Made by a program: the position numbers and the translations under genes
Origin: Shigella phage Sfin-1
Length of the DNA stretch: 50,403 nt
Sequence record: NC_047998.1
Reading direction: 5' to 3' (one strand)
Notes under the pieces: generated by a model
Told to the model about the DNA's origin: nothing
Seen by the model: the letters and a program-made list of their open reading frames with translations, nothing else
Database searches by the model: none
In this document: positions 1 to 50,403 of the stretch, piece by piece
How positions within the stretch are numbered: position 1 is the stretch's first letter
Layout of the letters: each line of letters starts with the position of its first letter

Positions 1-703
1 TGGAATCGTTAGCCGTCCAATTTACGCTTACGCTACCTGCTGCATCTCCACCAATTGGAGTAAGAACGCCAGATTTTGGATCTATTGTCGCAATATTTTC
101 AGCATCAACAGACCACAGGCCAGTTTTATCGGTGGCGTTGTCAGGTTTTACAGCAACGTTAAATTGCACAGGTGCATTGTTTGGCTGAGGACTCTCCTTG
201 TTAGTTGTAATCGTCGCAGACTCAACAAGAACCACAGGAGGGGGTGGAGGTGGAACAATGAAGGCATTTCGCTTAACCTGTACCTCAATAATGTACCCGT
301 CCTCGTGCTTAACAAACCCACCAGCAAATGTCCAACCTACGGAACCAGAGCTACCAGTAACAACACCACCAGATCCAAATTGTAACTTTGAGAATAAGGC
401 CGGAGCTTCATCAAGAGAAGTGAGCGTCCACATTCGACCATGAGAAACGACGTTGCAAACTTCACCGTCGAGGATTTTACCGCTCAGGTGTTCATATTGG
501 GAACGGAAAGCGATTCCGTAAGGTGTTGCACCATCAGTAAGCGTGGAAACAACCTTAACTCCGTCAACAATACCGACAACTTTAACAGCAGCGCCGAACT
601 CAATATCACCTTTAGCAACACAAGATCCATCAATATTGTAGTTTGAAGTATCCGAAAGATTACCAGGGCACGCCGGGCGTAACATTAAATTTTCGTAAGG
701 CAT
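1..703 (-). CDS. Head decoration-like structural protein with C-terminal Ig-like (Big_2-type) domain; 5' portion only, continues beyond window start
   Basis: ATG at 703 preceded by GGAG; the ORF runs open to position 1. N-terminal ~110 aa are paralogous to the 764..1240 product (shared SxYNIDG(A/S)CV and GAAV motifs), followed by a PPPPPP linker and an Ig-like segment. In frame with the partial ORF at 50339..50403. Confidence 0.55.
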   Translation of the reverse strand, partial: MPYENLMLRPACPGNLSDTSNYNIDGSCVAKGDIEFGAAVKVVGIVDGVKVVSTLTDGATPYGIAFRSQYEHLSGKILDGEVCNVVSHGRMWTLTSLDEAPALFSKLQFGSGGVVTGSSGSVGWTFAGGFVKHEDGYIIEVQVKRNAFIVPPPPPPVVLVESATITTNKESPQPNNAPVQFNVAVKPDNATDKTGLWSVDAENIATIDPKSGVLTPIGGDAAGSVSVNWTANDS

Positions 704-717
704 AGTATTTTCTCCAT

Positions 718-747
718 AAAAAAAGGACTATCCAAAAAGGATAGTCC
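718..747 (-). terminator. Intrinsic terminator (hairpin GGACTATCC/GGATAGTCC plus U7) after the 158-aa head gene
   Basis: Perfect 9-bp stem with 5-nt loop, followed on the minus strand by a run of 7 T. Confidence 0.6.
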
Positions 748-763
748 CCATATTAAACACTAA

Positions 764-1240
764 TTACAGTTGATGCAACTGAACTTCAACAAGCTGAATG
801 TCTTTATATTTGGTCCAACCGCCAGCGTAGGTCCAAGTGGTTTCGATCGTACCGTCAGATTTCTCTTGACCGTCAACGTCAAGTTTTACAGCGCCCCCGA
901 AAGTTGGCGCCTCTTCTGATTTGGAAAGCATCCAAACTCTACCGGAGGTAATCACGTTGATAGCGCCGCCATCTTCGTAAATCATCTGATTATCTTTATT
1001 CACAGTCTGCCAGTGAGATCGAATAGCTACGCCATACGGCACTTTAGACGATTCCATAGCCTTAACCAATTTATGGCCATCAACGGCTTGGGCTTGAACA
1101 ACCTGTACGGCGGCGCCAACAAAAACATCACCTTCGTTAACGACGCAAGCGCCATCAATATTATACTTCGAAGTATCCGCAACCATACCCGGAAGCGCAA
1201 TAGCCATGTCTCGCTGATAAGATGCATTAATCTGTGCCAT
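764..1240 (-). CDS. Head decoration-like structural protein (158 aa), paralog of the 1..703 N-terminal domain
   Basis: AAGGGG RBS upstream of the ATG; sits between the scaffold-like gene and the capsid gene; followed by a terminator. Confidence 0.55.
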   Translation of the reverse strand: MAQINASYQRDMAIALPGMVADTSKYNIDGACVVNEGDVFVGAAVQVVQAQAVDGHKLVKAMESSKVPYGVAIRSHWQTVNKDNQMIYEDGGAINVITSGRVWMLSKSEEAPTFGGAVKLDVDGQEKSDGTIETTWTYAGGWTKYKDIQLVEVQLHQL

Positions 1241-1251
1241 GATATTTCCCC

Positions 1252-2364
1252 TTACATTACTTTGCTTAAACGTGAATTTGGCGTAACAGGCGCGGCGTCG
1301 TTTTTCTCTTCCGGCTTACCACCTTCGATAGAATCGCCTTTTACCGCCTTACGCTGAATAGCCATAATATCAGAATCCTTAGCAACATCAAACATAGCGT
1401 CGATATATGCGTCTGATTTTTCGCTAACATCTTTATCAAGCATAGCTTTGACAACAGCGACCTTAACGTCTTTGATATCAAGACCATCATGCTTAACGCC
1501 TGCGGTTTCCGCTACTGCGGTTACTTCAGCACGCGCTGCGGCGTCAGCTTTTTGCTTCTCTACTTCGGCCTTCACCAGTTCCGGCAGGGAGTCAACCTTA
1601 ACCTTCAGCGCATCGCGCTCAGCTTCGAAGCCATCAGCTTTTCCCTGAATGGTGGCAATCTGCGCGGTTAATTTTTCGATATGGTTCGCAACATCTTCGG
1701 TTACTTCCACATCAACTGAGTCGATCTTAATTTTCTTCATTTGCTTGTCCTCGTTAGTTAATTGAACGTTATTATCATACGGGAATTCCTGCTCAGCATC
1801 AAGATTTAATTTGGCAATTCCCGCGCGACCTTTAAAAACCAGAGCAATATGGTTGACCTTGATATTAGTCTGTACAGCATCGAATTTAACCCAACCTTCA
1901 GGCGGCTCTTCGTCCTGTTTCATATCCTCTTCGAAGATATATTCTCCAGTCTCATTTGAACCCCACCCCGGTTTATCAATATCTACTGACGTGTAGCCAA
2001 CAGATAATTCACCAGCTTCTTTTGCTTTAGCCTTGCTGATCGCGTAGTCGCTGTAAATGCTCAAAGGGACTTCAACTCCAACACCTGAAGCAATACCAGC
2101 GCCAGCGCACGATCCTACAACAACGTCCTTAGCATTTTGGGGGGTTACCGTTACGTGACCGACTGTGATCGGCTTGCCTGCAAAACTTTGCAAGGAATCT
2201 TGCTTGAAAACTTCGGACGCCGGACGGAACTCAACTCGATCGCCGTGGGGAGTCTTGTAAACCTGAGCACCGATTCGTGCCACAATGGGGCGGTCAACCA
2301 AAAAACCATTATCATCAAAGTGCGCCTTGATTTTTACTGAATCGAATCTTTGCTTTGCCTTCAT
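1252..2364 (-). CDS. Prohead scaffold/protease-like protein (globular N-terminal domain plus charged coiled-coil C-terminal half)
   Basis: Internal ATG at 2364 with GGAG RBS; C-terminal half is K/E/A/D-rich like a scaffold; position is immediately downstream of portal and minor head genes. Confidence 0.45.
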   Translation of the reverse strand: MKAKQRFDSVKIKAHFDDNGFLVDRPIVARIGAQVYKTPHGDRVEFRPASEVFKQDSLQSFAGKPITVGHVTVTPQNAKDVVVGSCAGAGIASGVGVEVPLSIYSDYAISKAKAKEAGELSVGYTSVDIDKPGWGSNETGEYIFEEDMKQDEEPPEGWVKFDAVQTNIKVNHIALVFKGRAGIAKLNLDAEQEFPYDNNVQLTNEDKQMKKIKIDSVDVEVTEDVANHIEKLTAQIATIQGKADGFEAERDALKVKVDSLPELVKAEVEKQKADAAARAEVTAVAETAGVKHDGLDIKDVKVAVVKAMLDKDVSEKSDAYIDAMFDVAKDSDIMAIQRKAVKGDSIEGGKPEEKNDAAPVTPNSRLSKVM

Positions 2365-2366
2365 TT

Positions 2367-3026
2367 TTAATCTCCTGTGGAAAAGTCTGGAACAGCCCAA
2401 CAGCGGCAATTGTATTCTTCACCCGGAAATACGTGATCGGAATCTACCGCTATACGCTTACCTTCCCATCTTACATGTTTTTCACGTTCGCGTAAATCCA
2501 TCACCCCTCGCCAGAAATAATAAGAGACACCAGCGTCTTTTATGCGCTGCCGCATTAGTCTACTGTTCCAGGTTCCGACAATTCCCGATGCTCTATTTTT
2601 GGCCCAATTCCGGTAAATACCAAATCGCTCCTTAGCAAGTTCAACAACAAAATCCTTGCTTTTACCCTGACCGGATGCCGCACGAAGTTTATCAGTGAAA
2701 TCAGTAACCATGTTGGCGGCAAATTTCCTGATAGAAGTAGTCACCTGCGATCGCCACAGATTATATTGTCCTGAGTACCAACTTTCGGCAGCGGTAGGAC
2801 CAATCAGGGCAAGTAGCATCACGGCTTGATTCTTCTTACCTCCAGCATTGCGAGCGATGCGCAGCCACTGCTTAGAGTTGAATTTATAGATCGTGAGCGC
2901 AACGGATGATAGAGAACCGATAATCGGCGCGATGAGTGATTCAACGTAATTAAGCAATGACCTTTCTGCCTGATCTATCTCTTCGTCGGTAGCATCAAAT
3001 TTCATCAGCTTTAATTCGTCGCGCAT
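2367..3026 (-). CDS. Minor head / head morphogenesis protein (Mu F / SPP1 gp7-like)
   Basis: C-terminal motif ...YNCRCWAVP... typical of the Mu F-like family; located just after portal. Confidence 0.65.
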   Translation of the reverse strand: MRDELKLMKFDATDEEIDQAERSLLNYVESLIAPIIGSLSSVALTIYKFNSKQWLRIARNAGGKKNQAVMLLALIGPTAAESWYSGQYNLWRSQVTTSIRKFAANMVTDFTDKLRAASGQGKSKDFVVELAKERFGIYRNWAKNRASGIVGTWNSRLMRQRIKDAGVSYYFWRGVMDLREREKHVRWEGKRIAVDSDHVFPGEEYNCRCWAVPDFSTGD

Positions 3027-3116
3027 TTTTCAGTTAGTTTGGCTGCAATATCCTGTAGGGAGCGCGACATTGCGCGCTCGCTCATTTCAGGATAGCGCCA
3101 CTGAGTAGCAACGCCA

Positions 3117-4400
3117 TTAATTTTCATCTTCTAACTTCTCCCCTAATCCCGGTTCCGGTTCGGTTGTTTCTTCAGGTTCGCGAATGTTGATGTTATTACC
3201 ATCCTTGAGTTTGAACTCAGGGGCAATAGATCGCAACGTGTCGCGAGCTTCTTCCAGATCGATGATTTGCTCAGTGATAGCTTTCGTAACCGACTCAACG
3301 TTATTCTTCGTGATCTCTGATTCCTCTTTCTTGCTAGGAACGGATAAAGGCTCGAACTCGATCGACCACTCTTGCTCGTCAACAATGAACGGCAGCAAGA
3401 ACTCAAGAAGAGGCCTGTAATCTTCCTCACGCTTACGATCTACAAGCTTATAGAAAGTCTCAAGTGCTGTATTTTGGCTCGCTGATACGCCGCCTACGTT
3501 CTTATTTTTGATGATAATCTCATGAATCCCGGAAAGGGAAACAATACGATCCATCTTGCTAGATAAGAACTCAGGCACTCCGCTGATATCAGAGTTTAGA
3601 ACATCGTATTCTTCCGTCTCGGCATCGATACCGATCGCACGGCCAACACCTGAATTATCGTCAACCTGAGCCAGTCTCAAGCGCGCTGCATACTGAGCAT
3701 CATCATCATCACACATTTCAGCAAGACCCTTGACTTTCCATACCGCCTGCTGCTTACGCCTCAGGATCTGAGTCGCAAGTGATTCGCAATAGTCGTAGTC
3801 GCAGATTGCATCAATCAGTGACTTATTCAAAACTGAAGCACCCCACCCTTGATTCTGCTTTCGAATCTGAGGTGTTACTCGCTCACCATCAGCAATAAAA
3901 ATTCTTGTGTGGTGGATTAAGTAAGGTTGAAGATTATCACCAGGAGATACCTTGTATATCTCAGGCTCACCATAGCGAGGCGATCGAGCGTTGGTTACTC
4001 TTTTTTCGATTGTAATTGCGAATCTATCATAAACACGCACACCTTCAAGTTTAGCTCCAGGTTTAACAGGGCTGGTTAACATTCTGTTGTCATTAATGAT
4101 CGCTACAATAGCCGCTCCACCGTATAGGCGCGCCCAGCAAAGAACATCAACCAAGCTAGGATCAATTTTGTAACTATCCCACAGAGACTTGAACTCTTTT
4201 TCATCCTTGACTCCTGATATTTTAAAACCAGCCGTAACCATCTCTTCAGGGATCACGTCGACAATTCTTTTCGCTGTCGCGTTATCGTTATAGAATGAGC
4301 CGACGTTATATGACGCATCAACCATAAAAAATGGTTTAGGTGAGCCGTCCGCGCCGCCGTTAAAGATATCGTTATAACCATCATGCTTAACAATTTTCAT
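3117..4400 (-). CDS. Portal protein
   Basis: 427 aa with acidic C-terminus; GGAGGG RBS; directly downstream of the large terminase. Confidence 0.85.
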   Translation of the reverse strand: MKIVKHDGYNDIFNGGADGSPKPFFMVDASYNVGSFYNDNATAKRIVDVIPEEMVTAGFKISGVKDEKEFKSLWDSYKIDPSLVDVLCWARLYGGAAIVAIINDNRMLTSPVKPGAKLEGVRVYDRFAITIEKRVTNARSPRYGEPEIYKVSPGDNLQPYLIHHTRIFIADGERVTPQIRKQNQGWGASVLNKSLIDAICDYDYCESLATQILRRKQQAVWKVKGLAEMCDDDDAQYAARLRLAQVDDNSGVGRAIGIDAETEEYDVLNSDISGVPEFLSSKMDRIVSLSGIHEIIIKNKNVGGVSASQNTALETFYKLVDRKREEDYRPLLEFLLPFIVDEQEWSIEFEPLSVPSKKEESEITKNNVESVTKAITEQIIDLEEARDTLRSIAPEFKLKDGNNINIREPEETTEPEPGLGEKLEDEN

Positions 4401-4412
4401 ACTTTCCCTCCA

Positions 4413-4440
4413 ATAAAAAAGGCCGTCAATTGACAGCCTT
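4413..4440 (-). terminator. Putative intrinsic terminator or attenuator between terminase and portal
   Basis: GGCTGTCA-loop-TGACGGCC hairpin followed by U6 on the minus strand. Confidence 0.4.
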
Positions 4441-4456
4441 GATTATATCTCATTTA

Positions 4457-6025
4457 TTACCGCTTAACCATCCCGGCGAGTCGCTTCATTCTCTCGATAG
4501 GATCATCAATGGTCAGCAATTCGATGTTCGCCGCATCCATGAAGTTATCGACGATATCATCATGCGGATGGGTGTCATCGTAAGTGAAGGCGCTATGTTC
4601 TGCGATGATTTCCGCAAGCATAGGGTGCTCTTCTGGAAGAACCACGCGCCCGGCCTTAATTACTGGCTGAGCATCCATAGCTCGGGTAACTTTATCTTTG
4701 TTACGCTGCAATGGTGTGATTGAGATCGGAGTCTTTTTCCTTAAGTTCTGAATCAAGCCCGTCCCGCTCGCCTTATCTTCCACGTAGATTTTGCGAAGCA
4801 CACCCATTGATTTATTGTGCCTCCATGCCTGATTCACGAAGGCGGTAAATTGTTTCTCCATATCAGGCGCTTCCCACTTGCCGCGAATGCCGTCGATAAA
4901 GTAAACCTTATCGTTTTTCTTACCCCATAAGCAAAACACCGTGTAGTCGTTTAGTTCACCTGTCTTCTGAGCGGTATCGGCAGTGATGAAACGGTAATCA
5001 TATTTGCCCGGATCTGGCTCGTTAGCGTCAAGACTGCTGCCGTAATAAGTCCACCATTCCGAGTTAAACACGGAGCCGCCAAGCGCGATCGGCTTCTGCT
5101 GGTACTGAGAATCAAAGGTGTACTGGTCCGCTTCGCGCAAAGCCAATAGGTCGTGAACACTCTCCTTGCTGGGCCAGAATGAATAATGCTTAACACCATC
5201 CAATTCTACATACTCAGACGACAAAACGTCGCGCTCGAAATAAGGCTGCAACCAGTCAGGAAGTGTCTTTCCGTATTCTTCAGTCACCAGTGCCGGGATC
5301 GAGATCTGGTCAAACTCAATACCCATACCTCCATTCATCATAAACCAAGTTGAATCCTGCGCGTGCAGTCGCTGCTGGATTGCGATAATCGGCGTCTCGT
5401 TGTGCATACGACGGGATCGTATGGTGTTCTTCAATAGCATGTGAGTACGCTCACGCTTAACCTTTGAGAACATATCGTCAGGCTTGTCTATATCGTCGAG
5501 CATTACCATCCCGGAGAATCCCGGCATCATATAGCCACCACGCGAACCTGTGATTCGACCTCCGGCTGCTGCGGATATTAGCTCGAACCAGACCTTGCCA
5601 TCTTCGTTAAGAACTTGCATCTCTTCATCTTTCGATGTGCCGAACTTACAGGGCCACAACTCTTGGAACTCTTTGCTGCTGATAATCTCACGAACTCGCT
5701 TACTGTTACGCTTTACAAGGCTATCTGCAAATGAAACGTTAAGGTTTCGTACCTTCTTGCACTTGAGCATTGCGTAAACAGGAAGGTGAATTGAGAACAC
5801 CTCGGTTTTACCCGAACCTGGCGTGACGTTAAAGATAGTGTTCCCGCGTCGACCTGCAATTATTTCCTCAACTTCGTGACATAAATAAAGGTGATGCCAG
5901 TTAGGCTGGAACTGCTGAGCCTGCATAAGCTGGAACCAGATCCTAATCATCTTTTCGAAATTCGCCTCACTCATTTTCTTGATCGCTAACTTCTGAGTTG
6001 CGTCGAGGTCTTCCCATTGAATCAT
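4457..6025 (-). CDS. Terminase large subunit
   Basis: Walker A-like VTPGSGKT, Walker B-like MVMLDD, C-terminal nuclease-like region; AAGGAG RBS. Confidence 0.9.
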   Translation of the reverse strand: MIQWEDLDATQKLAIKKMSEANFEKMIRIWFQLMQAQQFQPNWHHLYLCHEVEEIIAGRRGNTIFNVTPGSGKTEVFSIHLPVYAMLKCKKVRNLNVSFADSLVKRNSKRVREIISSKEFQELWPCKFGTSKDEEMQVLNEDGKVWFELISAAAGGRITGSRGGYMMPGFSGMVMLDDIDKPDDMFSKVKRERTHMLLKNTIRSRRMHNETPIIAIQQRLHAQDSTWFMMNGGMGIEFDQISIPALVTEEYGKTLPDWLQPYFERDVLSSEYVELDGVKHYSFWPSKESVHDLLALREADQYTFDSQYQQKPIALGGSVFNSEWWTYYGSSLDANEPDPGKYDYRFITADTAQKTGELNDYTVFCLWGKKNDKVYFIDGIRGKWEAPDMEKQFTAFVNQAWRHNKSMGVLRKIYVEDKASGTGLIQNLRKKTPISITPLQRNKDKVTRAMDAQPVIKAGRVVLPEEHPMLAEIIAEHSAFTYDDTHPHDDIVDNFMDAANIELLTIDDPIERMKRLAGMVKR

Positions 6026-6064
6026 AATTAAATCTCCTTCATGGGCGCTTTCGCGCCCGTAACG

Positions 6065-6589
6065 TTAAAGCATGTCAAGAATGCTGTTCACTGCCTCTTT
6101 CATTGCATCCTCAGTGGTGGCAACAGAGGTATATGCTGAAGCTGCTGAGTTTTCGATATTGATTGAGGCTGGCTTATCGATCCCGAGATCCTTGCCGATA
6201 AAGGAGGCGTTAATAACACCGTTGGCGGCAAGTTGGAATTTTTGCTCGTTGATTACAGATTCCACGAACTCCATAACCTCGCTATATTCCTCTTCTCGCT
6301 TCCACTTAATGATAGCGGCCTCACTTGCACCGATGAATAGTCGATACCCTGTCCAGGTGAACACCCGAGGCTTATGAACAAGAGATTCGTACACGCCACC
6401 CTGAAAGCTGGCTGATTCAGACGCCTTGATCGCATTGTCCTCAGCCCATTCGAAATACTTAACTGATAGATCGAATAATTGCTCAGGCGTCATGGCCCGA
6501 TTCTTCGCAAGAACAGTGCCGAACTTTTTCTTGTATAGCTCTTTGAAATTACCACCCTGAACTACGGGAGCGTTCTTAGGTTCACTCAT
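6065..6589 (-). CDS. Terminase small subunit (putative)
   Basis: Immediately upstream of the large terminase; start moved to the internal ATG at 6589, which has an AGAGGG RBS (the 6613 ATG has none). Confidence 0.55.
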   Translation of the reverse strand: MSEPKNAPVVQGGNFKELYKKKFGTVLAKNRAMTPEQLFDLSVKYFEWAEDNAIKASESASFQGGVYESLVHKPRVFTWTGYRLFIGASEAAIIKWKREEEYSEVMEFVESVINEQKFQLAANGVINASFIGKDLGIDKPASINIENSAASAYTSVATTEDAMKEAVNSILDML

Positions 6590-6642
6590 AAATATACCCT
6601 CTTTGTTTAACATTTAGTGCTATTTTACCATATTGCAGGCAT

Positions 6643-6665
6643 AAAAAAACCCGCCGTAGCGGGTT
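6643..6665 (-). terminator. Intrinsic terminator (CCCGCCGTAGCGGG hairpin plus U7)
   Basis: GC-rich stem followed by 7 T on the minus strand, upstream of the packaging genes. Confidence 0.55.
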
Positions 6666-6673
6666 AGTATTTA

Positions 6674-6886
6674 TCACGATAATCGTCGTTTAATGCCTTT
6701 AGGGTGGGTCTGAGCTTTAGAGTAGCAGTGAGCAAGATCGCCAGTCATTTCCCATTGATCCTTCTTTGGTGAGTAGGTAAGCCATACACCAGTTTTATCC
6801 TTCGCGTCCATCGCAATTGCTGCCGCCACAAGTGCGAAGCCAGAAAATAAACCAGTACCAAAAAAACGATACCAGCGATAATCCAT
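6674..6886 (-). CDS. Hypothetical small membrane protein
   Basis: 70-aa ORF with one hydrophobic helix (LFSGFALVAAAIAM). Confidence 0.4.
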   Translation of the reverse strand: MDYRWYRFFGTGLFSGFALVAAAIAMDAKDKTGVWLTYSPKKDQWEMTGDLAHCYSKAQTHPKGIKRRLS

Positions 6887-6901
6887 AAAAAAATTTCCAT
6901 G

Positions 6902-7087
6902 TTAGATCTCCTTAATTAATTCAATGTTTATTTTGTGAGTGTCAAGGTTTGCGCCGGAAAGTTTTTTTGCTTTCGCGATGGCTTCTGCCTGACTGGTTGC
7001 CGATACTTCAGTTTCGAAAGATTGTTTGCATGATTGGCAAAACATCCCCATCTTTCGAATGATCAATTTAACTTTGAATCGCTTCAT
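6902..7087 (-). CDS. Hypothetical protein
   Basis: 61-aa ORF in the dense same-strand array. Confidence 0.35.
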   Translation of the reverse strand: MKRFKVKLIIRKMGMFCQSCKQSFETEVSATSQAEAIAKAKKLSGANLDTHKINIELIKEI

Positions 7088-7230
7088 CTTCTTGCGCCTT
7101 AATCATAACGCCATCGATGCGACCAATAACAGCCTCTCCAGGATTTAACCGCTTTTTATAACGAGTTGTTTTGCCGTTGCGAGTTACTTTAATTTCGATT
7201 TTGACTGATTCGTCTTTGATATTTTGCATT
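7078..7230 (-). CDS. Hypothetical small protein (50 aa), below the ORF-track length cutoff
   Basis: ATG with AGAGGA RBS; stop overlaps the start of the next gene. Confidence 0.3.
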
Positions 7231-7393
7231 ATGCAATCCTCTTGAGTTTTTGCCGCTTACGGGTCTGCGGCGTTGCTTAACCACTATGCAACCGAGCTTT
7301 TTAGCTGGAAGTGTGAGAATCATCTCACGCGTTGCGCTTCTTTGCGCCTCGTCTGTCTACGGGATTAATACTATCACCGCTCAGCGATTCAGG

Positions 7394-7597
7394 TCAATCA
7401 TTAATTTCAAATTGGCCCTTAGCAATATCCTGCGGGTAGTCAATCTCATGAATATTTCCATCGTCTCCGTATACAAATACGAGTCTCTTTGCTTTACTTA
7501 CTTTTTCAACGTCATACAAGCATCCCGCTGAGAAAGCATCACCATTGCGTGATGTAACACATCGAACCTGATCGCCTTTCTTCGGTAAGTTAGCCAT
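7394..7597 (-). CDS. Hypothetical protein, member of a small paralogous domain family
   Basis: QVRCVTSRNGDAFSAGCLYDV...LVFVYGDDGNIHEI resembles the repeats in the 10627..11283 product. Confidence 0.5.
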   Translation of the reverse strand: MANLPKKGDQVRCVTSRNGDAFSAGCLYDVEKVSKAKRLVFVYGDDGNIHEIDYPQDIAKGQFEIND

Positions 7598-7827
7598 TAT
7601 TCGTAATCACCCTCTTTGTTACCTACGCGCCCTGCAATATATCCGGCGGTCCATACAAACTTGTAGCGGTCGATGAGTAGCTCAACCTTTTTGTGATGAG
7701 TTGAGATCACATCAATCATAATCTTTTCGTTTTTGCGATCTTCTTTCTTCATTCCGCTAACGAATTTATTCAATTCCTTCGCCGCGCGCTTTACCACGTT
7801 CCATTCCGCTTCACTTAAACCAAACAT
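7597..7827 (-). CDS. Hypothetical protein
   Basis: 76-aa ORF, start overlaps upstream stop. Confidence 0.45.
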   Translation of the reverse strand: MFGLSEAEWNVVKRAAKELNKFVSGMKKEDRKNEKIMIDVISTHHKKVELLIDRYKFVWTAGYIAGRVGNKEGDYE

Positions 7828-8171
7828 TATTTACCACTCCCGAATGAAAAGTTGACATTTAAAACCTGATTGCAAACTGATTCCATGTATCGCAACTGAT
7901 ATTGAGCAACCTTTGAAGGACTTAATTCATCAGAAAATAAGTCATCAACATTGATTTCTTTTTTATGCTTGCGCTTCCATGCCTTGATGATATTTGGCAG
8001 GATGCGCTCGCTCTTCCAGGCTGCAAACTCAGCTTGATTCGTTGAAACAGGAGTAAGTTGCTTTTCGATCTGGTTGAGCAACTCGGCAGTTGCTCCTTTT
8101 ACGTGCAATTGGTCGCCAATCGCATCAAGGATTTCACGAGCTTGCTTCTCTGATAGGTTAATCGTAATCAT
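7827..8171 (-). CDS. Hypothetical protein
   Basis: 114-aa ORF, start overlaps upstream stop. Confidence 0.45.
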   Translation of the reverse strand: MITINLSEKQAREILDAIGDQLHVKGATAELLNQIEKQLTPVSTNQAEFAAWKSERILPNIIKAWKRKHKKEINVDDLFSDELSPSKVAQYQLRYMESVCNQVLNVNFSFGSGK

Positions 8172-8377
8172 GCCTCTTCTCCTTCATCTTCGATCGGTGT
8201 AAAAAACTGAGTGTTCACTGCCGGGTTGTAATAAACTCCGTCATCATAGTCGCTTTCTTTCACTTCAATGAAAACGTCGCAACCGTCATGCATGAAATCA
8301 CCGTTATCAGTATGAACGAGTTCGAATACTTCAGAAGTTTTAGTGCAAGTGAAAAACTTATCAGTTGATACCATCAT
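8168..8377 (-). CDS. Hypothetical acidic protein
   Basis: 69-aa ORF, first gene downstream of the promoter cassette at 8410..8453. Confidence 0.45.
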   Translation of the reverse strand: MMVSTDKFFTCTKTSEVFELVHTDNGDFMHDGCDVFIEVKESDYDDGVYYNPAVNTQFFTPIEDEGEEA

Positions 8378-8409
8378 TTCGATTTTCTCTCTTCGTTGTC
8401 GATGAGGTA

Positions 8410-8453
8410 ACTATATCAAATCACCCCACCGACGTTTTAGCAATTCGTGCTAT
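8410..8453 (-). promoter_or_regulatory. Early promoter cassette (TAGCACGAATTGCTAAAAC dyad, 22-bp spacer, TGnTATAGT)
   Basis: Dyad TAGCA-N5-TGCTA; 22 bp to extended -10 TATAGT; the TAG of the dyad is the stop codon of the upstream kinase gene. Confidence 0.55.
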
Positions 8454-9022
8454 TTGTTGATGAACGTAGCGGCTATGTGCTGAGCGGTAATTTCTGGATG
8501 ACCTTCGACAGAGAAGAAATCACACTCCTGATAACCATTAACCCCGATCATATCTTCCAGGTAAATATAATCACGGCTGTCGTTGTCAAAGTTGCAGCCT
8601 TTGCGGTGTATTCGACATAGCTTGACCTGGATATCACCCTCAATCATCTGCAATACCTCATCTTTGAATCCACCATCAGTAAATACTGACAGAGAATATG
8701 ACTCTTTGACCTTGCTTTCCGCTCGCATACCGAAGAATCGATTTCCGAACTGTGGCTTGATGACTTCCTCGCTAATCCAGATCATAAACTGGCGCGGGCT
8801 TTTACCGTTCAGGATTGACGCTGGCTCTTCTTTGTAACGACGGTCCTCATACAAGAACATGAAATACTCGTAGTTAGTTTCACCCAGGATTGCCCGAGCA
8901 ATCTCAAACATTGGTGCTTTAAAGCTGCGCAAAGCTACATGATCGTAAGTGTCAGCCAGGATGCATCCGATAGTGTCCTTGCCTGCTCCAGGAGCGCCGT
9001 TTAAAATGATAGCTGTTTTCAT
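8450..9022 (-). CDS. P-loop nucleotide/nucleoside-monophosphate kinase (T4 Dnk-like)
   Basis: Walker A GAPGAGKDT and an LNGKSP motif that I recall from T4 gp1 dNMP kinase; AGGGAG RBS. Confidence 0.55.
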   Translation of the reverse strand: MKTAIILNGAPGAGKDTIGCILADTYDHVALRSFKAPMFEIARAILGETNYEYFMFLYEDRRYKEEPASILNGKSPRQFMIWISEEVIKPQFGNRFFGMRAESKVKESYSLSVFTDGGFKDEVLQMIEGDIQVKLCRIHRKGCNFDNDSRDYIYLEDMIGVNGYQECDFFSVEGHPEITAQHIAATFINK

Positions 9023-9023
9023 A

Positions 9024-9134
9024 TCAGTATCTCCCTAAAAATAATTTTGCCATATCGATAATAGTGTGATTGATGATTAGCAGGATGATAACCGTCAATA
9101 CCGGATGTGCTGCAATAAATTCGTATAGGTTCAT
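9024..9134 (-). CDS. Small single-pass membrane peptide (36 aa), translationally coupled to both neighbours
   Basis: ATGA overlap with the phosphatase stop; stop 1 nt before the kinase ATG; hydrophobic core VLTVIILLII. Confidence 0.35.
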   Translation of the reverse strand: MNLYEFIAAHPVLTVIILLIINHTIIDMAKLFLGRY

Positions 9135-9607
9135 TTCTCTACCCCGTGCGATTTTAAATGATCGTGAACGTTATCGCCATAGTCAACTACAGCATATGTT
9201 GTTATTCCAAGCGACCGGAATAATGGAATAATTTGCGGTGAGTCATCCCAAGCTGCCAGGATGTTTTCAATACCGATCGCTCGCACCGCTTCTTCTTTCA
9301 TCACCGTGTCTTTCCTGTTGTCTGTGTGCGGTCGCATGACTAAGTAATCATATCTCGCACCGTGATGCTTAAGCCATAACTCAGATGCGTAACGAACCTC
9401 ATCACTTCGCCCGGTTAAAACTATTACGTGATACCCGGCAGCAAACATAGAGTTCATAACCTCAATCGTGCTCTGGATTGGGTTATCAAATATTGCCGCT
9501 CGGTTAAACTCAGACCAGCTTTCAGTTAAGTGCAAATCCTTTGTCGGCAACAGGTGAAGGCGCTTTGATCCATCACTAAGCGTTCCGTCAAAGTCAAAGA
9601 TTGCCAC
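9131..9607 (-). CDS. HAD-superfamily phosphatase (putative nucleotidase or polynucleotide 3'-phosphatase)
   Basis: N-terminal DFDGTL (HAD motif I, DxDGT); GTG start. Confidence 0.6.
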   Translation of the reverse strand: MAIFDFDGTLSDGSKRLHLLPTKDLHLTESWSEFNRAAIFDNPIQSTIEVMNSMFAAGYHVIVLTGRSDEVRYASELWLKHHGARYDYLVMRPHTDNRKDTVMKEEAVRAIGIENILAAWDDSPQIIPLFRSLGITTYAVVDYGDNVHDHLKSHGVEK

Positions 9608-9703
9608 GCGTCGCGTGCCGAGAAACAGGTTGATAGTTTGACCCCAATGGTAATTTTATCCATGATTTATTCCTATGATTGGTTGCTTAACTCAACGAAG
9701 GGC

Positions 9704-9747
9704 ATTCTATCAAATGCCCTTGAGCAAGTTTTAGCAATTAGTGCTAT
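9704..9747 (-). promoter_or_regulatory. Early promoter cassette (dyad plus 22 bp plus TAGAAT)
   Basis: TAGCACTAATTGCTAAAAC followed after 22 bp by TGaTAGAAT; a GGGCATT/AATGCCC hairpin overlaps the -10. Confidence 0.5.
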
Positions 9748-10193
9748 TACCAGCAACTGATCTCGTATTCAGCCCAGCTATCAAACTCTTCCTGACTGAA
9801 TGAGCCGCCGTAATTGTCATGAATATCATCGATCAAAAAGTAGCACGACTCACCGTTACGATAGAAGTATGAATCAGCAACGTTACGCGCCCATGTTCCG
9901 GCGTCCTTCTTGCTCATCTTCCAGTATTTAATTGCAATCTTCTTGAATGCGCGAACTACGCGCTTGCGGATCTTGATATGCTTGTACCCCGCGTTGCAGC
10001 CGTAAGCCATATACTCATTGTTCCCGAGATTCTGCATGATGTACGGATTAACTTCTTTTGAAGCAATCATTAGATCGCCATCGCCTCGATGCGCATCATA
10101 AATGCTTGCTGTCATGTAGTGGCCTTTGAACATTCCAATGCCGTGCAGGGTGTGTTCATTGTTAGGTGTATCAATGCAAATCAAATGTTTCAT
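9747..10193 (-). CDS. Hypothetical protein (148 aa)
   Basis: Start moved to the internal ATG at 10193, which has a GAGGG RBS. Confidence 0.45.
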   Translation of the reverse strand: MKHLICIDTPNNEHTLHGIGMFKGHYMTASIYDAHRGDGDLMIASKEVNPYIMQNLGNNEYMAYGCNAGYKHIKIRKRVVRAFKKIAIKYWKMSKKDAGTWARNVADSYFYRNGESCYFLIDDIHDNYGGSFSQEEFDSWAEYEISCW

Positions 10194-10223
10194 GAGTGTT
10201 CCCTCGTTCGTTGGTGTAGGGGA

Positions 10224-10267
10224 ATCATATCGCATTCCCATTGATAGGTTTTAGCAATTCGTGCTAT
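10224..10267 (-). promoter_or_regulatory. Early promoter cassette (dyad plus 22 bp plus TATGAT)
   Basis: TAGCACGAATTGCTAAAAC, 22-bp spacer, TATGAT; GGGAAT/ATTCCC hairpin. Confidence 0.5.
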
Positions 10268-10469
10268 TCGTTTTAATAGTGATGCAAAAATAATTTTTTA
10301 AGCACGTCACCACGCGCGCTGAATCTACTTGTGGAAGCCTTAAAATTTCATGGACCAGTTGCACTGCCGACACGTCAAAATTGTAGTAGTGTGCGATTCT
10401 GGAGGTATTTGGGAGCATCCCTTCCACTGCGTCACGCGCTGCATCTTCCGCTGTCATGATAGTAGCCAT
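10251..10469 (-). CDS. Hypothetical protein (72 aa)
   Basis: AAGGG RBS; stop lies within the downstream promoter dyad. Confidence 0.35.
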   Translation of the reverse strand: MATIMTAEDAARDAVEGMLPNTSRIAHYYNFDVSAVQLVHEILRLPQVDSARVVTCLKNYFCITIKTNSTNC

Positions 10470-41757: not shown

Positions 41758-42536
41758 TGATTTTTCCTCTGTAGTGAAGCAACCGCGCAGCCGCCAAAAT
41801 CCAGTTCATTGTTTGCGCCGAATCGCAGGCGGCAGGCCGTTACCGTGCCTGGGCAGAAATCCAAAGCAGGATCGTCTACCGGATTATTGTCTTTGTCAAA
41901 ATAACCGTTTTGCCCGTTGTATCCGCAGCCTTTCCCGGTTTTATACCATCCCCGCTGCGCCCAATAGCAAACGCTTTGCGTTAGTCGAGACGGGATCATG
42001 ATGCCATCCATATCATACGGAGACGTGAGATCGAATCGGGCGACGCTCTTATCGACATAGCTCGGGCGTTCGATATAGTATACCAGTTTGCGGTAAGCGC
42101 CGTCAGCTATTGAGCCGTCAGGTTGAATTAAGTCCTTTTGAGTGATCCAGATTGTCACCTTAGCTTGCATCAATCCGTTATATGATCGAATCATTGCAGA
42201 TACTCTGCTATCAATGTTCGCCACCGTCAACTGTGGTTTTGTTGCCTTGCCGGAACTATCAAACGAGATCCCGGATATGCCGAACGGGCGCGCTCCATAT
42301 TGCTCCCCACGGAATGTAATTTCTTTCGGCGGCAGCGTTCCAGTTTGCTGGGCCTGCATGATTTCCTCTGGAGTGTACTGGATATTCTCTCCGTGGAATC
42401 GATACACCTGAGCGCCGAACTTGCTACCATCCACTTCGATCAGAGTGATAATCTCTCCAGGATACAGTGATTGCAGGCAGTTATGAAACAGGCTCTTTCC
42501 GCTTTCTTCATCATACAGTTTTTTGTTTTCGCTCAT
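41754..42536 (-). CDS. Minor tail protein (lambda gpL-like)
   Basis: C-terminal Cys cluster (CYWAQ...C.Y...C...C...C); start at the ATG with AGAGGA RBS. Confidence 0.75.
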   Translation of the reverse strand: MSENKKLYDEESGKSLFHNCLQSLYPGEIITLIEVDGSKFGAQVYRFHGENIQYTPEEIMQAQQTGTLPPKEITFRGEQYGARPFGISGISFDSSGKATKPQLTVANIDSRVSAMIRSYNGLMQAKVTIWITQKDLIQPDGSIADGAYRKLVYYIERPSYVDKSVARFDLTSPYDMDGIMIPSRLTQSVCYWAQRGWYKTGKGCGYNGQNGYFDKDNNPVDDPALDFCPGTVTACRLRFGANNELDFGGCAVASLQRKNQ

Positions 42537-42576
42537 TGATTTTTCCTCTTGTTTGCCTGCAACCATTCTACAGCTA

Positions 42577-43034: not shown

Positions 43035-45842
43035 TCATTTTTTGAACATCATTTCTACGCCCTGAGAAATTCCTCTCGGATCTGAACCGTTGTCAACTTT
43101 AACCTCCATACCCCTAACATCAACGACCGTCCCGCCTGCTGACTGGTTCGCTGCCTTCGGTGCGGATTTAGATGCGTTAAATCCAGAGGTTGCAACACTA
43201 CCCGCAGCGGCAGCAAGCGAGGTAACGGCAACGCCTGAAGATAAAGACCTAAAACCAGAGACGGCAGGCGTAGGAGTTGCCTGTGATGCCGCAGAAGCGC
43301 TAGAGGTCAATCCACTTGCAAAACTCCATGTCTTACCTCCCGTCATGCCTGAGATCGTATTGAAGATTACCATCTGAGCAATCATCTTGATAATCATGCT
43401 AATGATATTTTTCGCAAAGTCCTCAAAATTTGCCTTACCTGTAGTAAGGAATTGGGTCATCATATCACTCATTCCGTTAAGTGAACTTGACGCGATATCA
43501 TACACGTTGCCGTACATATCCATTGCAGAATCGCCGTAATCTGCAAATGCGCTTTCAGCACCAGCTAACCAGTCAGCGCGCTTGGCATCTTCCGCAGCAT
43601 AGTAATCATTTTGTGCCTTGATCATGTTCTGGAGTTTTTCATCTCCTTCGCTGCCACCTGCATTAATATAGTCAGTGGTGATCTTAGCCAATTCCGCTTG
43701 TCGTTCCATTTCTCGAGTGCTCATCCCGCGAGACGCGTTTAGCTGCTCTGTAGCTGCCGTCAAATCATTGACAAATTTCAGTGATTTATCGGTAAGTGCG
43801 TTCAACTGCTGCTGCTTAACAATCTGATCGCCAATCTCAGCCTTTTGTTTCGCAAGCTCTAAAACCTTCTCTTGGTTTGCAAGTAGTGCTTTTTCTTCCG
43901 CAGATAGCTGACGCTTAGAACTAGCTTCTCGAAGAACAGCAATTGTAGCCTCAGTCGTAAAAAGCGCCTTTCTCTGTGCTGATATTTTTTGCCCGATCTC
44001 CTTGTGCTCCTGCAAAACCTTAAGCTGCGCTTTGAGTGAAATTAACTCCTTATCGAATTGCTCTGTAGGTGAGCGTAAAATTTTCGACTGCTTATTTCGT
44101 TCACGGTTTCGCTTTTCGATCTCTTTAGCTTCTTCCTTGATGGCGTCCTTAGTTTCCTGGCTATACTGCTTTTCAAGAGTACGGCGCTGCTTCATTGCTT
44201 CAATGTATCCCATCTCACCTTTTTCAACACGGGCGTTGATGGCATCAAGCTCTGAAGCTAACTGATCGTAGTTGTCACGAGAACTTTTTACAATATTCTC
44301 CTGTTCCTTTAGTACATCAGCGCCGAAATCACTCATTCCAGGCAGAGACTGCGTAGCCTTAATTGCAGAGGCTATAAAGTTTGAGATGTACTCATCACCC
44401 TTCGCCAGAATCATTTTTACCTGAATTACCGTACCCTGAACTACGTCAATAATCAGGTTTAATGCTCCGAGAGTATGATCCCCAACCCACCCCCACGCAT
44501 CAGAGGCCCACTGCTTAATATCGTTCCACATTTTTTCCAGAGGGGTAGCATTATCAGCGATCGACTTCATTCGTTTTTCCATTACATCGGCGAATAATTT
44601 CGTGGCTTCAGACACTGCCTCTGTTTCACCCTTAGTACGGCTTAGCGTATCGATATATGTCAGTTGCCCTTTTTCTAAAAAGTTGTATTGCTCGTTAAGT
44701 TTAGCCAGACCCTTTACAGGATCGCTTGCGATTTTATCGAACTCAGCGATGATTTTACTTGCTGATTTACCGGTTGCTGTCGACCACTCAGCGGTAGCCT
44801 TTGTGATGTTCTGAATCTGCTCTCGCGTATACTTCCCCGTACTGGCAAGTTCAGTAACAATCTCACGAATGCTTGAAATTGTTGAATTGCTCGTCTGAGA
44901 CACCTTTTTAGCAACAGAATCAAGTTCTTCAGCCGTGACTCCTGCATAACCTCCAGTCTCAACAAGAGCCTTCTGCATATCAGTTATTGACTTGTAAGAG
45001 TCATAACCAGCTTTCGCAAGAAGACCTAAAGAGCCGACAAGAACACCAACACCAACTGTGACCGGATTAATATAGCTGAGCAATACCTTAAACGTATTCC
45101 CGATCCCGCCGAACGAGTCCTTGATTTGACCACCTTGCTGGATGGCAACCATCCAAACTGGCATACCGGACGCAAGAGATGTAACGACGTCGGTAATCTG
45201 TGCAGGAAGCATTCGCATTGCCTGCCTATATTGCCCCGCGCTAATACCTGCGGCATTCATGGCTCGACCCTGCTCTTTCAGTTTTGCGATCAGTGGCGCT
45301 GCTTCATTTGATAGTCCAAGCTGAGCCGCTTTCAGTTCCATTAACTCTGCGTGAGTTTTGCCAATAGCGTTAACCTGACTGTTCAGGGAATCCATGAACG
45401 CTTTGTTTTTCGCTGCTGCCTGCTCTTTTGCTTTCGCTTCCTGCAATGCTGCCTGCCCCTCTTCAGTAAGCATGGCTCGGCTGCGAGCAAGTTTTGCATT
45501 TTGCATGTCCAGCATTTCACCCAAACGGAAAAATGTTTCATCTGGAACAACGCCCTTTTGCCAGAGTTTATCAAGCTGCTGAGATGCAATCTTCAGCCTT
45601 TCCATTTTTGATACTGTAGGATCGATTGCCTTTTCTACAGCCTCGTACTCTTTGCGCTGGCGCTTAAGTTGCTCAGCGTGCTCTTTAGCCTTCTGTTTTG
45701 CAACCTCGGCCTCATTGATTAAAGACCCCATAGAGTCAGCGGCTTGGTCGTTAGCTTTTGAAAACTCTTTCAATGACTTGACGGCTCGCTGCACTGTCGA
45801 CACATCAACGTCAAGCGATAGACCTGCTACCTTATCAACCAT
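43035..45842 (-). CDS. Tail tape measure protein
   Basis: 935 aa, extended coiled-coil region and Gly/hydrophobic C-terminal part; start at the ATG with AAGGGGGG RBS. Confidence 0.9.
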
Positions 45843-45882: not shown

Positions 45883-46203
45883 TTAGTTATTCTGCTTAGC
45901 AATCATTTCAAGCGCTTTCGCTTCCATGATCCTAACGTCCTGCAATGCCAGTTCTTCATCTTCTATTTTATAGATTTTAAACAACATAGGCAAAACATTA
46001 TAGTCAAGACCATAAGCGCCAGCGCCTGAACTTCTCCACTGAGTGAGCATTGATGTAAAAACATTCCAAGCCTTCACCATTTCAGCGTCGCCAATTATCG
46101 TTTCAGGTTCCTCGTCTTCATAGTCTGAAAGACTTAAACCAACCGATCGCAATTGTTCCTCTGTTGGCGGCTTCTGATATAACAGATAGACCGCCCTTTT
46201 TAG
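45883..46203 (-). CDS. Tail assembly chaperone T-part, expressed as a G-T fusion by -1 frameshift
   Basis: ORF open in the -1 frame from the A_AAA_AAC heptamer (mRNA sense of 46203..46209) to 45883; no ATG of its own. Confidence 0.6.
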
Positions 46204-46517
46204 TTTTTTGCGCGGTGTCCGGCGAGAGCCTTGATGTAAGTTGCTGTCAGGTTGTACGCTGCTGAAGGATAATACTGAACCAGTTTTCGCGCATTTTCTT
46301 CGTTAAATTCTTCTTCAAGGTTCCATCCTGACGCGATCTTGGTAATGAACTCGCTGTCGTTCATTTCTCCTTGGTTGGCATACATATCCTGAACTTCTTT
46401 ACTGGAAAGGTGGCGTACAGTGAAAATGATCGTTGCATCTTCACCGTTAGGCATGGTGAAGGTGACTGGAAGTTTGAAGTCTGGAAGTTGACCAAGAACG
46501 AAATTAAATTTAGCCAT
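46200..46517 (-). CDS. Tail assembly chaperone (lambda gpG-like)
   Basis: 105 aa between major tail and tape measure genes; ends with a slippery heptamer and stop. Confidence 0.65.
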   Translation of the reverse strand: MAKFNFVLGQLPDFKLPVTFTMPNGEDATIIFTVRHLSSKEVQDMYANQGEMNDSEFITKIASGWNLEEEFNEENARKLVQYYPSAAYNLTATYIKALAGHRAKN

Positions 46518-46540
46518 GATATTTCTCCTGATTGGTTAAT

Positions 46541-46558
46541 GGCACTTTTTGTTAAAAG
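46541..46558 (+). promoter_or_regulatory. Isolated dyad element copy (TGGCACTTTTTGTTAAAA) without a -10 partner, antisense to flanking tail genes
   Basis: Sequence match to the early-cassette dyad; no -10 hexamer at 22 bp. Confidence 0.35.
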
Positions 46559-46630
46559 AGAATAGTGCAAACTTGATACGATGATTTTACAGAAATGAAT
46601 AAGGGGGCGCAAGCCCCCTGTGGATATGAT

Positions 46631-49238: not shown

Positions 49239-49253
49239 TTTGATTTCTCCAAT

Positions 49254-49280
49254 AAAAAAGGGACCAACTAAGTTAGTCCC
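49254..49280 (-). terminator. Intrinsic terminator after the major capsid gene
   Basis: GGGAC...GTCCC hairpin followed by U6 on the minus strand. Confidence 0.6.
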
Positions 49281-49287
49281 TATAATA

Positions 49288-50247
49288 TTACACGCCAGTG
49301 ATTAAGACAATAGTCATCGGACGATAAATTGTAAGGCCAGTACACTTGGAGGTGCAAGGCACTTTGAAGTGCAGATCTTTCGGCTGTGCTGGCAGCATGT
49401 TAAATGCTTCCGGGATCTCGATGGACATATTCATCGGATTCTTTTCGTACACCAGCACGCCTTTAGTTCCAGCGCCATCGATATCTTCAAGTTCTGCGAT
49501 AGAGTCAATTTCGATACCAGCATTCTGAGACTTGAAATAGTCCAGATAAGACATAGTGGTTTCAGGCATACGAATAGCCAAAACCTTACGCATGGACGGC
49601 GGGATCAGAATATTGGTTGCTCGGTGCTGTCCGCGAGTAATCGTCTCGATGGTTTCGATGGCCTGAGTTAGTTCAGCTTCAGCCGTTTCTGGTTTTTGGC
49701 TAACTCCATCAATCCACTTACCTGAGGTAATTTTGGTGATGTTCGGATGGTTGAACACAGACACGATCTTGTGCGGTGCGGAGCCTTTGAACACCAGACG
49801 GTTAACCAGTTGGTCATGCGCTAGCTGACACGCACTTGCCTTGCGGGTTGACAGCGGTCGACCAGTTGCCTGACCTGCTTTGATTTCGTCGATTGAAATC
49901 AGGTACGCGTTACCCAAGCGGAACACCTTTCCGAACTCAGAAGTGCCAAGCGCATCAACCAGAGGCAGGTCATCGGTATAGTCAGCGATAATCTGCGCAG
50001 TACCAACCTTATCAAAGGTCATGTACTCAAACGTCTTGTCGGTCGGAGAGAGATCGGTTGTAACCGGGAACACACGGAGAGCAGAACCTGCCGGGTAGTC
50101 CTCTTCGTAAGACTGGCTCTTGATGCGGTGTAGCTCCTGAGCGGTCCAGATACCCATAGTTGCTGCTGCATCCTGTTTTACGCCAGCTTGGATCAGGTAC
50201 ATTTCAATATTGCTTTTATCTGCTTCATCAAATTTTTTAGTAGTCAT
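49288..50247 (-). CDS. Major capsid protein (lambda gpE-like fold, putative)
   Basis: 319 aa, AAGGAG RBS, terminator immediately downstream, position upstream of the head-tail connector genes. Confidence 0.75.
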   Translation of the reverse strand: MTTKKFDEADKSNIEMYLIQAGVKQDAAATMGIWTAQELHRIKSQSYEEDYPAGSALRVFPVTTDLSPTDKTFEYMTFDKVGTAQIIADYTDDLPLVDALGTSEFGKVFRLGNAYLISIDEIKAGQATGRPLSTRKASACQLAHDQLVNRLVFKGSAPHKIVSVFNHPNITKITSGKWIDGVSQKPETAEAELTQAIETIETITRGQHRATNILIPPSMRKVLAIRMPETTMSYLDYFKSQNAGIEIDSIAELEDIDGAGTKGVLVYEKNPMNMSIEIPEAFNMLPAQPKDLHFKVPCTSKCTGLTIYRPMTIVLITGV

Positions 50248-50302
50248 GATTACTTCTCCTTAGTTAATAAAAAAAGCGTGATTATGTTCACGGCTTCAAT
50301 AA

Positions 50303-50320
50303 TAGCACTTTTTGTTAAAG
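50303..50320 (+). promoter_or_regulatory. Isolated dyad element copy (TAGCACTTTTTGTTAAAG) upstream of the capsid gene, antisense orientation
   Basis: Sequence match to the early-cassette dyad between the capsid start and the upstream gene stop. Confidence 0.35.
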
Positions 50321-50338
50321 CGTCAAAGTGTTTTTGTG

Positions 50339-50403
50339 TTATGACTCTTCTTCTTCGGCTGGCACAGCATCAAAGACATAAGTGATCGATTCTTTAGTTT
50401 TGC
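50339..50403 (-). CDS. 3' end of a structural gene (acidic C-terminus ...AEEEES); probably the C-terminus of the Ig-domain protein whose 5' part is at 1..703
   Basis: ORF open from the window end to the TAA at 50339..50341; reading frame is continuous with the 1..703 ORF if the two window ends are joined. Confidence 0.45.
   Translation of the reverse strand, partial: KTKESITYVFDAVPAEEEES

Follow-up and report, generated by a model that had tools for sequence, protein, structure and literature searches.

In phages T1 and TLS, pac-headful packaging with 3-4 permuted variants has been mapped experimentally; in T1-type phages in general, the permutation of virion DNA extends no further than a series of 3-4 headfuls that begins at one pac site (PMC11447400). 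The T1 cement protein gp49 forms homotrimers and, in addition, heterotrimers with gp48; cryo-EM showed the latter (gp48:2 gp49) on the quasi-threefold axes of the capsid (PMC11945409).

The window analyzed here, meaning the whole stretch of 50,403 nt, is the complete unit-length genome of Shigella phage Sfin-1 (Tunavirus, Drexlerviridae; MF468274) and has been published before. The record of Ahamed et al. (2019, PMC6714547) has the same length of 50,403 bp and shows no sequence difference, and the coordinates in Table 2 of that paper are identical (CDS1 703->2, CDS2 1240->764, CDS7 6025->4457, CDS82 50247->49288). According to the same paper, the original contig was 50,530 bp long and carried a 127-bp repeat at both ends (PMC6714547); subtraction of 127 from 50,530 gives 50,403, the genome length as deposited. 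We are almost certain that the two ends of this unit-length genome come from an arbitrary cut that opened a circular assembly inside the gene for the ortholog of T1 gp48.

A cement protein gene divided between the window ends

On the minus strand an ORF begins with ATG at 703..701 and runs for 234 whole codons plus 1 nt to position 1. Position 1 together with 50403 and 50402 forms the junction codon AGC, after which 20 further codons lead to the stop TAA at 50341..50339. Thus, the 5′ part of the gene (1..703, minus strand) holds codons 1-234 and the first base of codon 235, and the 3′ part (50339..50403, minus strand) holds the last two bases of that codon, codons 236-255, and TAA. Joined in silico, the ends give a single ORF of 768 nt. 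The original prediction had proposed this phase-matched frame with a product of about 255 aa; every detail of it was right, and the product is exactly 255 aa, as in T1 gp48 and in the Sfin-4 CDS described below. In contrast, the published annotation lets CDS1 end at position 2 without a stop codon in a genome called "linear".

Sequence statistics taken alone are uninformative about the join, and we rejected them as a basis for judging it: at the 3′ end of the window all three minus-strand frames close within 2-26 codons, and the phases of the two ends would match in 1 of 3 cases by chance. It is homology that makes the join more than chance, through the Big_2 domain lying across the junction, the alignment with T1 gp48, and the Sfin-4 CDS.

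At the level of domains, the fused protein matches Phage_cement (PF22758) at residues 8-143 (64 bits; cutoff, 27) and Big_2 (PF02368) at residues 163-238 (29.1 bits; cutoff, 22.8). The latter match spans junction residue 235, and the domain is complete only with the ends joined, the 3′ part of the gene supplying its end. Two solved structures align over nearly the whole length, each with E = 1e-133: T1 gp48 (PDB 9kzj, chain H, 255 aa) over 1-252 and 9kmh "gp29", a 255-aa homolog, over 1-253. The paper on Shigella siphophage Sf11 was considered as the source of 9kmh and rejected, as the only decoration protein of Sf11 is gp40, with 155 aa. Compared with T1 ST48 (gp48), also 255 aa, 197 of the 255 residues are identical (77%). 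By these similarities the fused protein is an ortholog of the T1 cement protein gp48, with a predicted N-terminal capsid-binding beta-tulip (Phage_cement) followed by a C-terminal Ig-like Big_2 domain, the arrangement found in T1 gp48 (PMC11945409). Where T1 gp48 and the Sfin-1 protein diverge, it is chiefly in the Ig-like domain at the C-terminus and in the tail (…AVPAEEEES against …AVPTPEVDV); the full 255-aa protein has the C-terminal stretch …SITYVFDAVPAEEEES. The earlier description of an "Ig-domain head gene" can be refined to a cement (decoration) protein with a beta-tulip N-terminal domain besides the Ig-like one.

The neighborhood of the gene is that of T1, with the common order gp49-like, gp48-like, major capsid protein. 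Immediately upstream lies the gene of a 158-aa cement protein paralog, the T1 gp49 ortholog (764..1240, minus strand; Phage_cement, 102.5 bits), which matches the 158-aa cement chain 9kmg. The two cement genes are separated by a terminator-like hairpin of 11 pairs with a T run (723..749, minus strand), and in T1 a terminator is annotated at the corresponding position (14235..14267, between ST49 and ST48). Downstream across the join, the intergenic region 50248..50338 (minus strand) contains a promoter-like site (50326..50299) and, at 50292..50277, a hairpin resembling a terminator; a promoter and terminators are annotated under this stretch in the records of phages SA12KD and Chapo. The next gene, 49288..50247 on the minus strand, encodes the major capsid protein (PF09950, 212.9 bits; phrog_264, major head protein; T1 ST47). 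If the T1 capsid is a guide, the beta-tulip domain of the gp48-like protein would join two gp49-like subunits, the resulting heterotrimers occupying the quasi-threefold positions in a T=7 capsid, and the Ig-like domain would project outward. Homology to T1 likewise suggests that the gp48-like protein is present in Sfin-1 virions.

The junction in related phages and the completeness of the genome

If the break is only a matter of linearization, then we can ask: What lies at the same place in relatives? In the records of nine related phages (Sfin-4, Sfin-2, Sfin-5, Sfin-6, phi2457T, ISF002, Chapo, SA12KD, and XJA18) the bases that correspond to window positions 50403 and 1 are immediate neighbors, for example 20081|20080 in Sfin-4 and 13861|13862 in Sfin-2. 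Additional genes between position 50403 and position 1, which would speak against a complete genome, were looked for in these relatives, and not one intervening base was present in any of them. T1 has equal spacing across the junction, with 61 nt on each side. The nine relatives come from several laboratories, and each record is permuted differently.

Sfin-4 (MN337573; species Tunavirus Sfin1) provides the closest comparison. Its record is circular, 50,407 bp long, opened at another position and on the opposite strand. Two HSPs tile the whole window and the whole Sfin-4 circle, which are collinear throughout; the alignment differs in 17 columns, and identity around the complete circle is 99.95-99.98%. 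Three substitutions separate the two genomes; Sfin-4 is 4 nt longer because nine homopolymer runs each have one base more, while a 5-nt deletion occurs once, at window 15977-15981. The Sfin-1 record has several probable homopolymer frameshifts, with homopolymer sites at 3025, 6859, 9645, 18909, 42981, and 43037 that may be either sequencing errors or true frameshifts. At 19378..20145 Sfin-4 carries an uninterrupted 768-nt CDS whose 255-aa product is 100% identical to the fused ORF, so that the search for homologs of the fused protein, which the original prediction had proposed as a check, found both this CDS and the 77% identical T1 gp48.

The genomes of Sfin-4, Sfin-2, Sfin-5, Sfin-6, and phi2457T all measure 50.2-50.5 kb. 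Collinear HSPs to T1 with 72-93% identity cover most of the Sfin-1 genome, and on similarity and collinearity with recognized members the phage belongs to Tunavirus (T1-like, Drexlerviridae). The size had been called typical of T1-like phages, and indeed the unit genome falls within about 49-51 kb and closes into a circle without extra sequence. The proposal of a whole genome linearized inside a gene is borne out by the adjacent flanks in nine relatives, the complete tiling of the Sfin-4 circle, and the 127-bp overlap of the first contig (PMC6714547).

Packaging and the origin of the break

The genes for the large (4457..6025, minus strand; CDS7 of the paper) and small (6065..6589/6613, minus strand; CDS8) terminase subunits were identified as ORFs within a 9-kb block in which T1 5962..14984, holding ST54 and ST53, aligns to window 9022..1 with 89.6% DNA identity, which indicates subunits of the T1/P22 type. 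In the Sfin-1 paper, TerL grouped with T1-like phages, the restriction map fitted a circle, and digests that were heated and then cooled slowly or rapidly had the same pattern, so cohesive ends were absent; a diffuse background was taken as headful packaging (PMC6714547). The headful reading of that paper was reached indirectly, from terminase phylogeny, the circular map, and the blurred background, a submolar pac fragment being unreported (PMC6714547). Our comparison of the window ends found no exact direct repeat of 8-399 nt common to both, as expected once the assembler overlap had been trimmed; taken with the digests of the paper, neither a fixed terminal repeat nor a cohesive end is found in this record. 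In its T1-like terminase genes, circular map, and lack of cohesive ends and exact terminal repeat, Sfin-1 resembles the pac-type headful phages T1, TLS, and P22. This resemblance supports the view that its virion DNA is probably packaged by a pac-initiated headful mechanism and is terminally redundant and partly permuted. The headful-packaged, permuted genome of the original prediction is thus supported, with the refinements that permutation is probably limited to 3-4 headfuls from one pac site and that the break is the choice of the assembler.

By analogy with these phages, the terminase would cut the concatemer once at pac and then load head after head with a little more DNA than one genome. 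By homology to the T1 record, the pac-proximal end at which the first packaged chromosome starts may be placed near window 16.2 kb and not at the window ends. An AT-rich noncoding stretch there (15868..16229, minus strand) shares homology with the opening 371 nt of the T1 record (T1 1..371 against 16229..15868, 80%). A 2.8-kb terminal repeat is annotated in that record (repeat_region 1..2800); the left edge of this repeat maps to the same stretch.

The deposited ends can then be explained as follows. Terminally redundant and partly permuted virion DNA would let the reads close into a circle; a de Bruijn-graph assembler would have closed the genome in this way, and one copy of the 127-bp overlap would have been trimmed before deposit. 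The length of the overlap equals what we take to be the largest SPAdes k-mer. The break, 65 nt ahead of the stop codon of the cement gene, would be arbitrary, with no physical end of the DNA there. Since about 91% of such a genome codes (coding density here, 91%), the cut could be expected to fall within a gene.

Other readings of the ends have to be weighed against this one. It is very improbable that they are fixed physical termini of virion DNA (cos or short direct repeats), with the gene truly interrupted or reconstituted upon circularization, although the Sfin-1 paper calls the genome "linear" and reports the 127-bp terminal repeat on its first contig (PMC6714547). That repeat matches an assembler overlap, independently assembled relatives start at many positions and all have an uninterrupted junction, and the paper's own digests and circular restriction map speak against such termini (PMC6714547), as do the experimental mapping of packaging in T1 and TLS (PMC11447400) and the location of the T1 terminal repeat about 16 kb from the window ends. 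Even less credible is that the window belongs to some larger replicon, for instance as a prophage within bacterial sequence or as a phage contig that is incomplete, and that the in-frame fit is a coincidence. The fit judged from the letters alone is weak enough to allow it, but this reading is refuted by the five relatives of 50.2-50.5 kb with adjacent flanks, by the tiling of the circular Sfin-4 record, by the identical Sfin-4 CDS, and by a fused protein exactly as long as its solved homologs.

Could the break nevertheless mark something real in the DNA? A limited headful series makes chromosome ends cluster at roughly regular offsets from pac (PMC11447400), and the assembler might have opened the circle at a coverage dip or where the headful ends of a later chromosome in the packaging series tend to fall. 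The chance of this is minimal: the full 127-bp contig overlap means that reads span the site (PMC6714547), and the sister phages of the same group open at different places. De Bruijn-graph assemblers, moreover, open circular paths regardless of biology. A related consideration comes from genome size. The unit genome of Sfin-1, at 50.4 kb, is 1.6 kb longer than that of T1 (48.8 kb, to which a redundancy of about 2.8 kb is added), so if headful size is unchanged its redundancy should be smaller than the 2.8 kb of T1. With a T=7 head that is presumably unchanged, redundancy might even fall to about 1 kb or less, near the minimum for recircularization by recombination, with the contig break reflecting a real clustering of headful ends, but we consider this unlikely. 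An arbitrary assembler cut is still the reading that we prefer.

Meaning for the Sfin-1 record

The original observation is supported, yet it concerns what was already known, and its practical yield is annotation repair only, namely of the truncated CDS1 and of several probable homopolymer frameshifts. In the public record and in the paper the cement gene stands as a 702-nt fragment without a stop codon, called a "hypothetical protein" in a "linear" genome; it appears in the paper's gene table as the truncated "CDS1 703->2" (PMC6714547, Table 2), and the text of the paper has no mention of CDS1 outside that table. The gp48 ortholog would regain its full 255 aa if the record began at another point, by convention ahead of the terminase genes or at the equivalent of the T1 start. 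For phage biology the result holds nothing new; circular assembly of headful phages, with arbitrary breaks inside genes, is routine.

The gene divided by the window ends

The minus-strand frame that opens with ATG at 703..701 runs for 234 codons plus one base to position 1. With the two ends joined in silico, position 1 forms with 50403 and 50402 the codon AGC (Ser235), which is followed by 20 further codons and a TAA at 50341..50339, giving one ORF of 768 nt and 255 aa. The original prediction, a gene in frame across the two ends, was right in its start, codon count, phase, junction codon, stop and length of about 255 aa. The sequence by itself lends the join weak support: at the right end, stop codons end the three minus-strand frames after 26, 2 and 20 codons, which gives a closed ORF in any phase, and the prior for a phase match is 1 in 3. 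The two window ends were compared for exact direct repeats of 8-399 nt, and none is common to both.

A 1.6-kb query spanning the junction matched 63 phage records, 59 of which cover at least 80% of the query in a single place; identity is 99.9% in the Shigella phages Sfin-4, Sfin-5, Sfin-6 and Sfin-2 and 99.6% in phi2457T. When the first 3 kb and the last 3 kb of the window were used as separate queries, window positions 50403 and 1 fell on directly adjacent bases in nine phages: Sfin-4 (20081 and 20080), Sfin-2 (13861 and 13862), Sfin-5 (11131 and 11130), Sfin-6 (20357 and 20358), phi2457T (16113 and 16112), ISF002 (28931 and 28932), Chapo (16018 and 16017), SA12KD (6590 and 6589) and XJA18 (20920 and 20921). 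Additional genes between 50403 and 1, which would contradict the join, are thus absent from these relatives. T1 is a more remote relative; its alignment leaves a gap of equal length over the junction, 61 nt on both sides.

The closely related Sfin-4 record (50,407 bp, species Tunavirus Sfin1) was deposited as circular, and two HSPs tile both this complete record and the whole window, which supports the claim that the window is a complete circular genome. After rotation only 17 alignment columns differ: 3 by substitution, nine by 1-nt indels and the rest by a single 5-nt indel.

A capsid cement protein with an Ig-like domain

Residues 8-143 of the fused protein form a Phage_cement domain (PF22758, 64 bits; cutoff 27), and residues 163-238 form an Ig-like Big_2 domain (PF02368, 29.1 bits; cutoff 22.8), which extends over junction residue 235. 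In PHROGs it matches phrog_1989, and its C-terminal part also matches Ig-domain structural families. A homolog in related phages was indeed found: Sfin-4 CDS 19378..20145, also of 255 aa, is 100% identical. The T1 cement protein gp48 (ST48), of the same length, is 77% identical (197/255). Among PDB entries, the 255-aa chains 9kzj_H (residues 1-252) and 9kmh, "decoration protein gp29" (1-253), match with E ≈ 1e-133; a further match, by the N-terminal domain, is to the 158-aa cement chain 9kmg.

In T1, gp48 residues 2-153 form the β-tulip cement domain, and residues 154-255 protrude outward as a flexible part that the map did not resolve and that was modelled with AlphaFold3; the authors of that study suggest that this protrusion may aid host adsorption (PMC11945409). 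The T=7 head of T1 bears 80 homotrimers of gp49 and 60 heterotrimers in which one gp48 joins two gp49, and this 2:1 co-assembly of paralogs is an uncommon two-protein decoration scheme (PMC11945409).

The gp49 ortholog (158 aa, Phage_cement 102.5 bits) lies upstream on the minus strand at 764..1240. It and the gene at 1..703 plus 50339..50403 (255 aa) are tandem paralogs, the Ig-like domain being an addition in the longer one. Between them on the minus strand is a strong terminator-like hairpin (749..723), and T1 likewise has an annotated terminator between its two cement genes. The major capsid protein gene follows on the same strand at 49288..50247 (Pfam and PHROGs matches), and the interval between cement and capsid genes holds a promoter-like site and a weaker hairpin.

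Origin of the window ends and packaging

In de Bruijn-graph assembly, a circular path typically shows itself by contig ends that overlap by the length of a k-mer. For Sfin-1, SPAdes initially produced a linear 50,530-bp contig whose two ends share a 127-bp repeat (PMC6714547), and 50,530 − 127 = 50,403, the window length. BglII and MluI digests agree with a circular map, heated digests did not differ between slow and rapid cooling, indicating no cohesive ends, and the gel background was diffuse; T1-like headful packaging was concluded from these data and terminase phylogeny (PMC6714547). Fixed physical DNA ends at the window termini are thus very improbable, since the junction is uninterrupted in independently assembled relatives, the restriction map is circular and cos ends are absent. 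That the window is a fragment of a larger replicon is even harder to credit, given the complete tiling of a 50.4-kb circular relative, and a non-arbitrary break due to coverage features, with nothing in its support, deserves equally little belief. The relatives' records have many different start points and include both strands, the pattern given by arbitrary linearisation of circular assemblies.

The adjacency, the Sfin-4 tiling and the published data (PMC6714547) all support a headful-packaged, circularly assembled phage linearised inside a gene. In T1 and TLS, headful packaging is initiated at pac and yields three or four chromosome variants, terminally redundant and permuted only in part (PMC11447400, PMC5238451). 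Reads from such DNA assemble into a unit-length circle, which the assembler opens at any point; coding annotation covers 91% of the Sfin-4 genome, so a break within a gene is to be expected. The original prediction can be refined: the break is an artefact of assembly, and virion DNA is probably permuted to a limited extent, with starts about 16 kb from the window ends. The T1 record is linear, with a repeat_region annotated at 1..2800, and its first 371 nt align with window 16229..15868 on the opposite strand. This homology and the T1 annotation suggest that the pac-proximal end, the start of the first packaged chromosome, lies near 16.2 kb, with packaging towards lower coordinates. If headful size equals that of T1 (about 51.6 kb), redundancy would be only ~1 kb, much as in TLS each packaging event is reported to shift the ends by ~1 kb (PMC11447400).

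Compared with Sfin-4, the window has five additional nucleotides, ATAAA, at 15977..15981, within a non-coding stretch that is very rich in AT and (TA)n-like. This stretch, homologous to the T1 record start, the left edge of its terminal repeat, is presumably the pac-proximal region. About 1.7 kb (16230..17975), between regions matching the T1 record start and record end, has no nucleotide counterpart in T1; plus-strand ORFs in or near it (16146..16541; 16600..17304, 234 aa; 17370..17705) have no function assigned in Sfin-4. By nucleotide alignment, T1 segments 5373..5962, 41949..42546 and 46159..46623 find no match in the window. They carry the three T1 HNH endonuclease genes (ST63, ST15, ST8), and Sfin-1 thus appears to lack these homing-endonuclease insertions.

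Homopolymer indels and the published annotation

All nine 1-nt indels relative to Sfin-4 (window 3025, 6859, 9645, 18909, 36870, 42577, 42981, 43037 and 50276) lie in homopolymer runs, the window being one base shorter each time. T1, an independent Sanger sequence, sides in alignment with Sfin-4 at 3025, 9645, 18909, 42577, 42981 and 43037, and at 6859 likewise has one base more than the window; this agreement concerns sites within conserved genes. Three minus-strand genes are altered. The T missing at 3025 shortens the head-morphogenesis (minor capsid) protein (2367..3127) to 219 aa, against 253 aa in both Sfin-4 and T1, and the gene appears as two fragments, CDS4 and CDS5, both "minor capsid protein" (PMC6714547). 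The A missing at 9645 costs the polynucleotide kinase/phosphatase (9131..9660) its first 19 codons, leaving 158 aa, where Sfin-4 has 177 aa and T1, by annotated coordinates, 176 aa. The T missing at 43037 leaves the tape-measure protein (43035..45842) with 935 aa against 957 aa in both relatives; the lost 22-aa tail has the same sequence in Sfin-4 and T1, and the structural model of the T1 tail tip includes the tape-measure C-terminus (PMC11945409). Because Ion Torrent sequencing was used (PMC6714547), these indels are probably undercalls and not real mutations.

Earlier publications already cover the genome (50,403 bp, GenBank MF468274; PMC6714547), its packaging mode and the protein together with the structure in T1, and the finding is an ordinary one. 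The published CDS table coincides exactly with the window ORFs, among them CDS2 (1240→764), CDS7 (6025→4457) and CDS82 (50247→49288), and the window is thus the MF468274 sequence itself. Since the window ends cut a gene, CDS1 (703→2, 702 bp, "hypothetical protein") is truncated there and has no stop codon, and a corrected CDS1 annotation is the sole yield of the finding.
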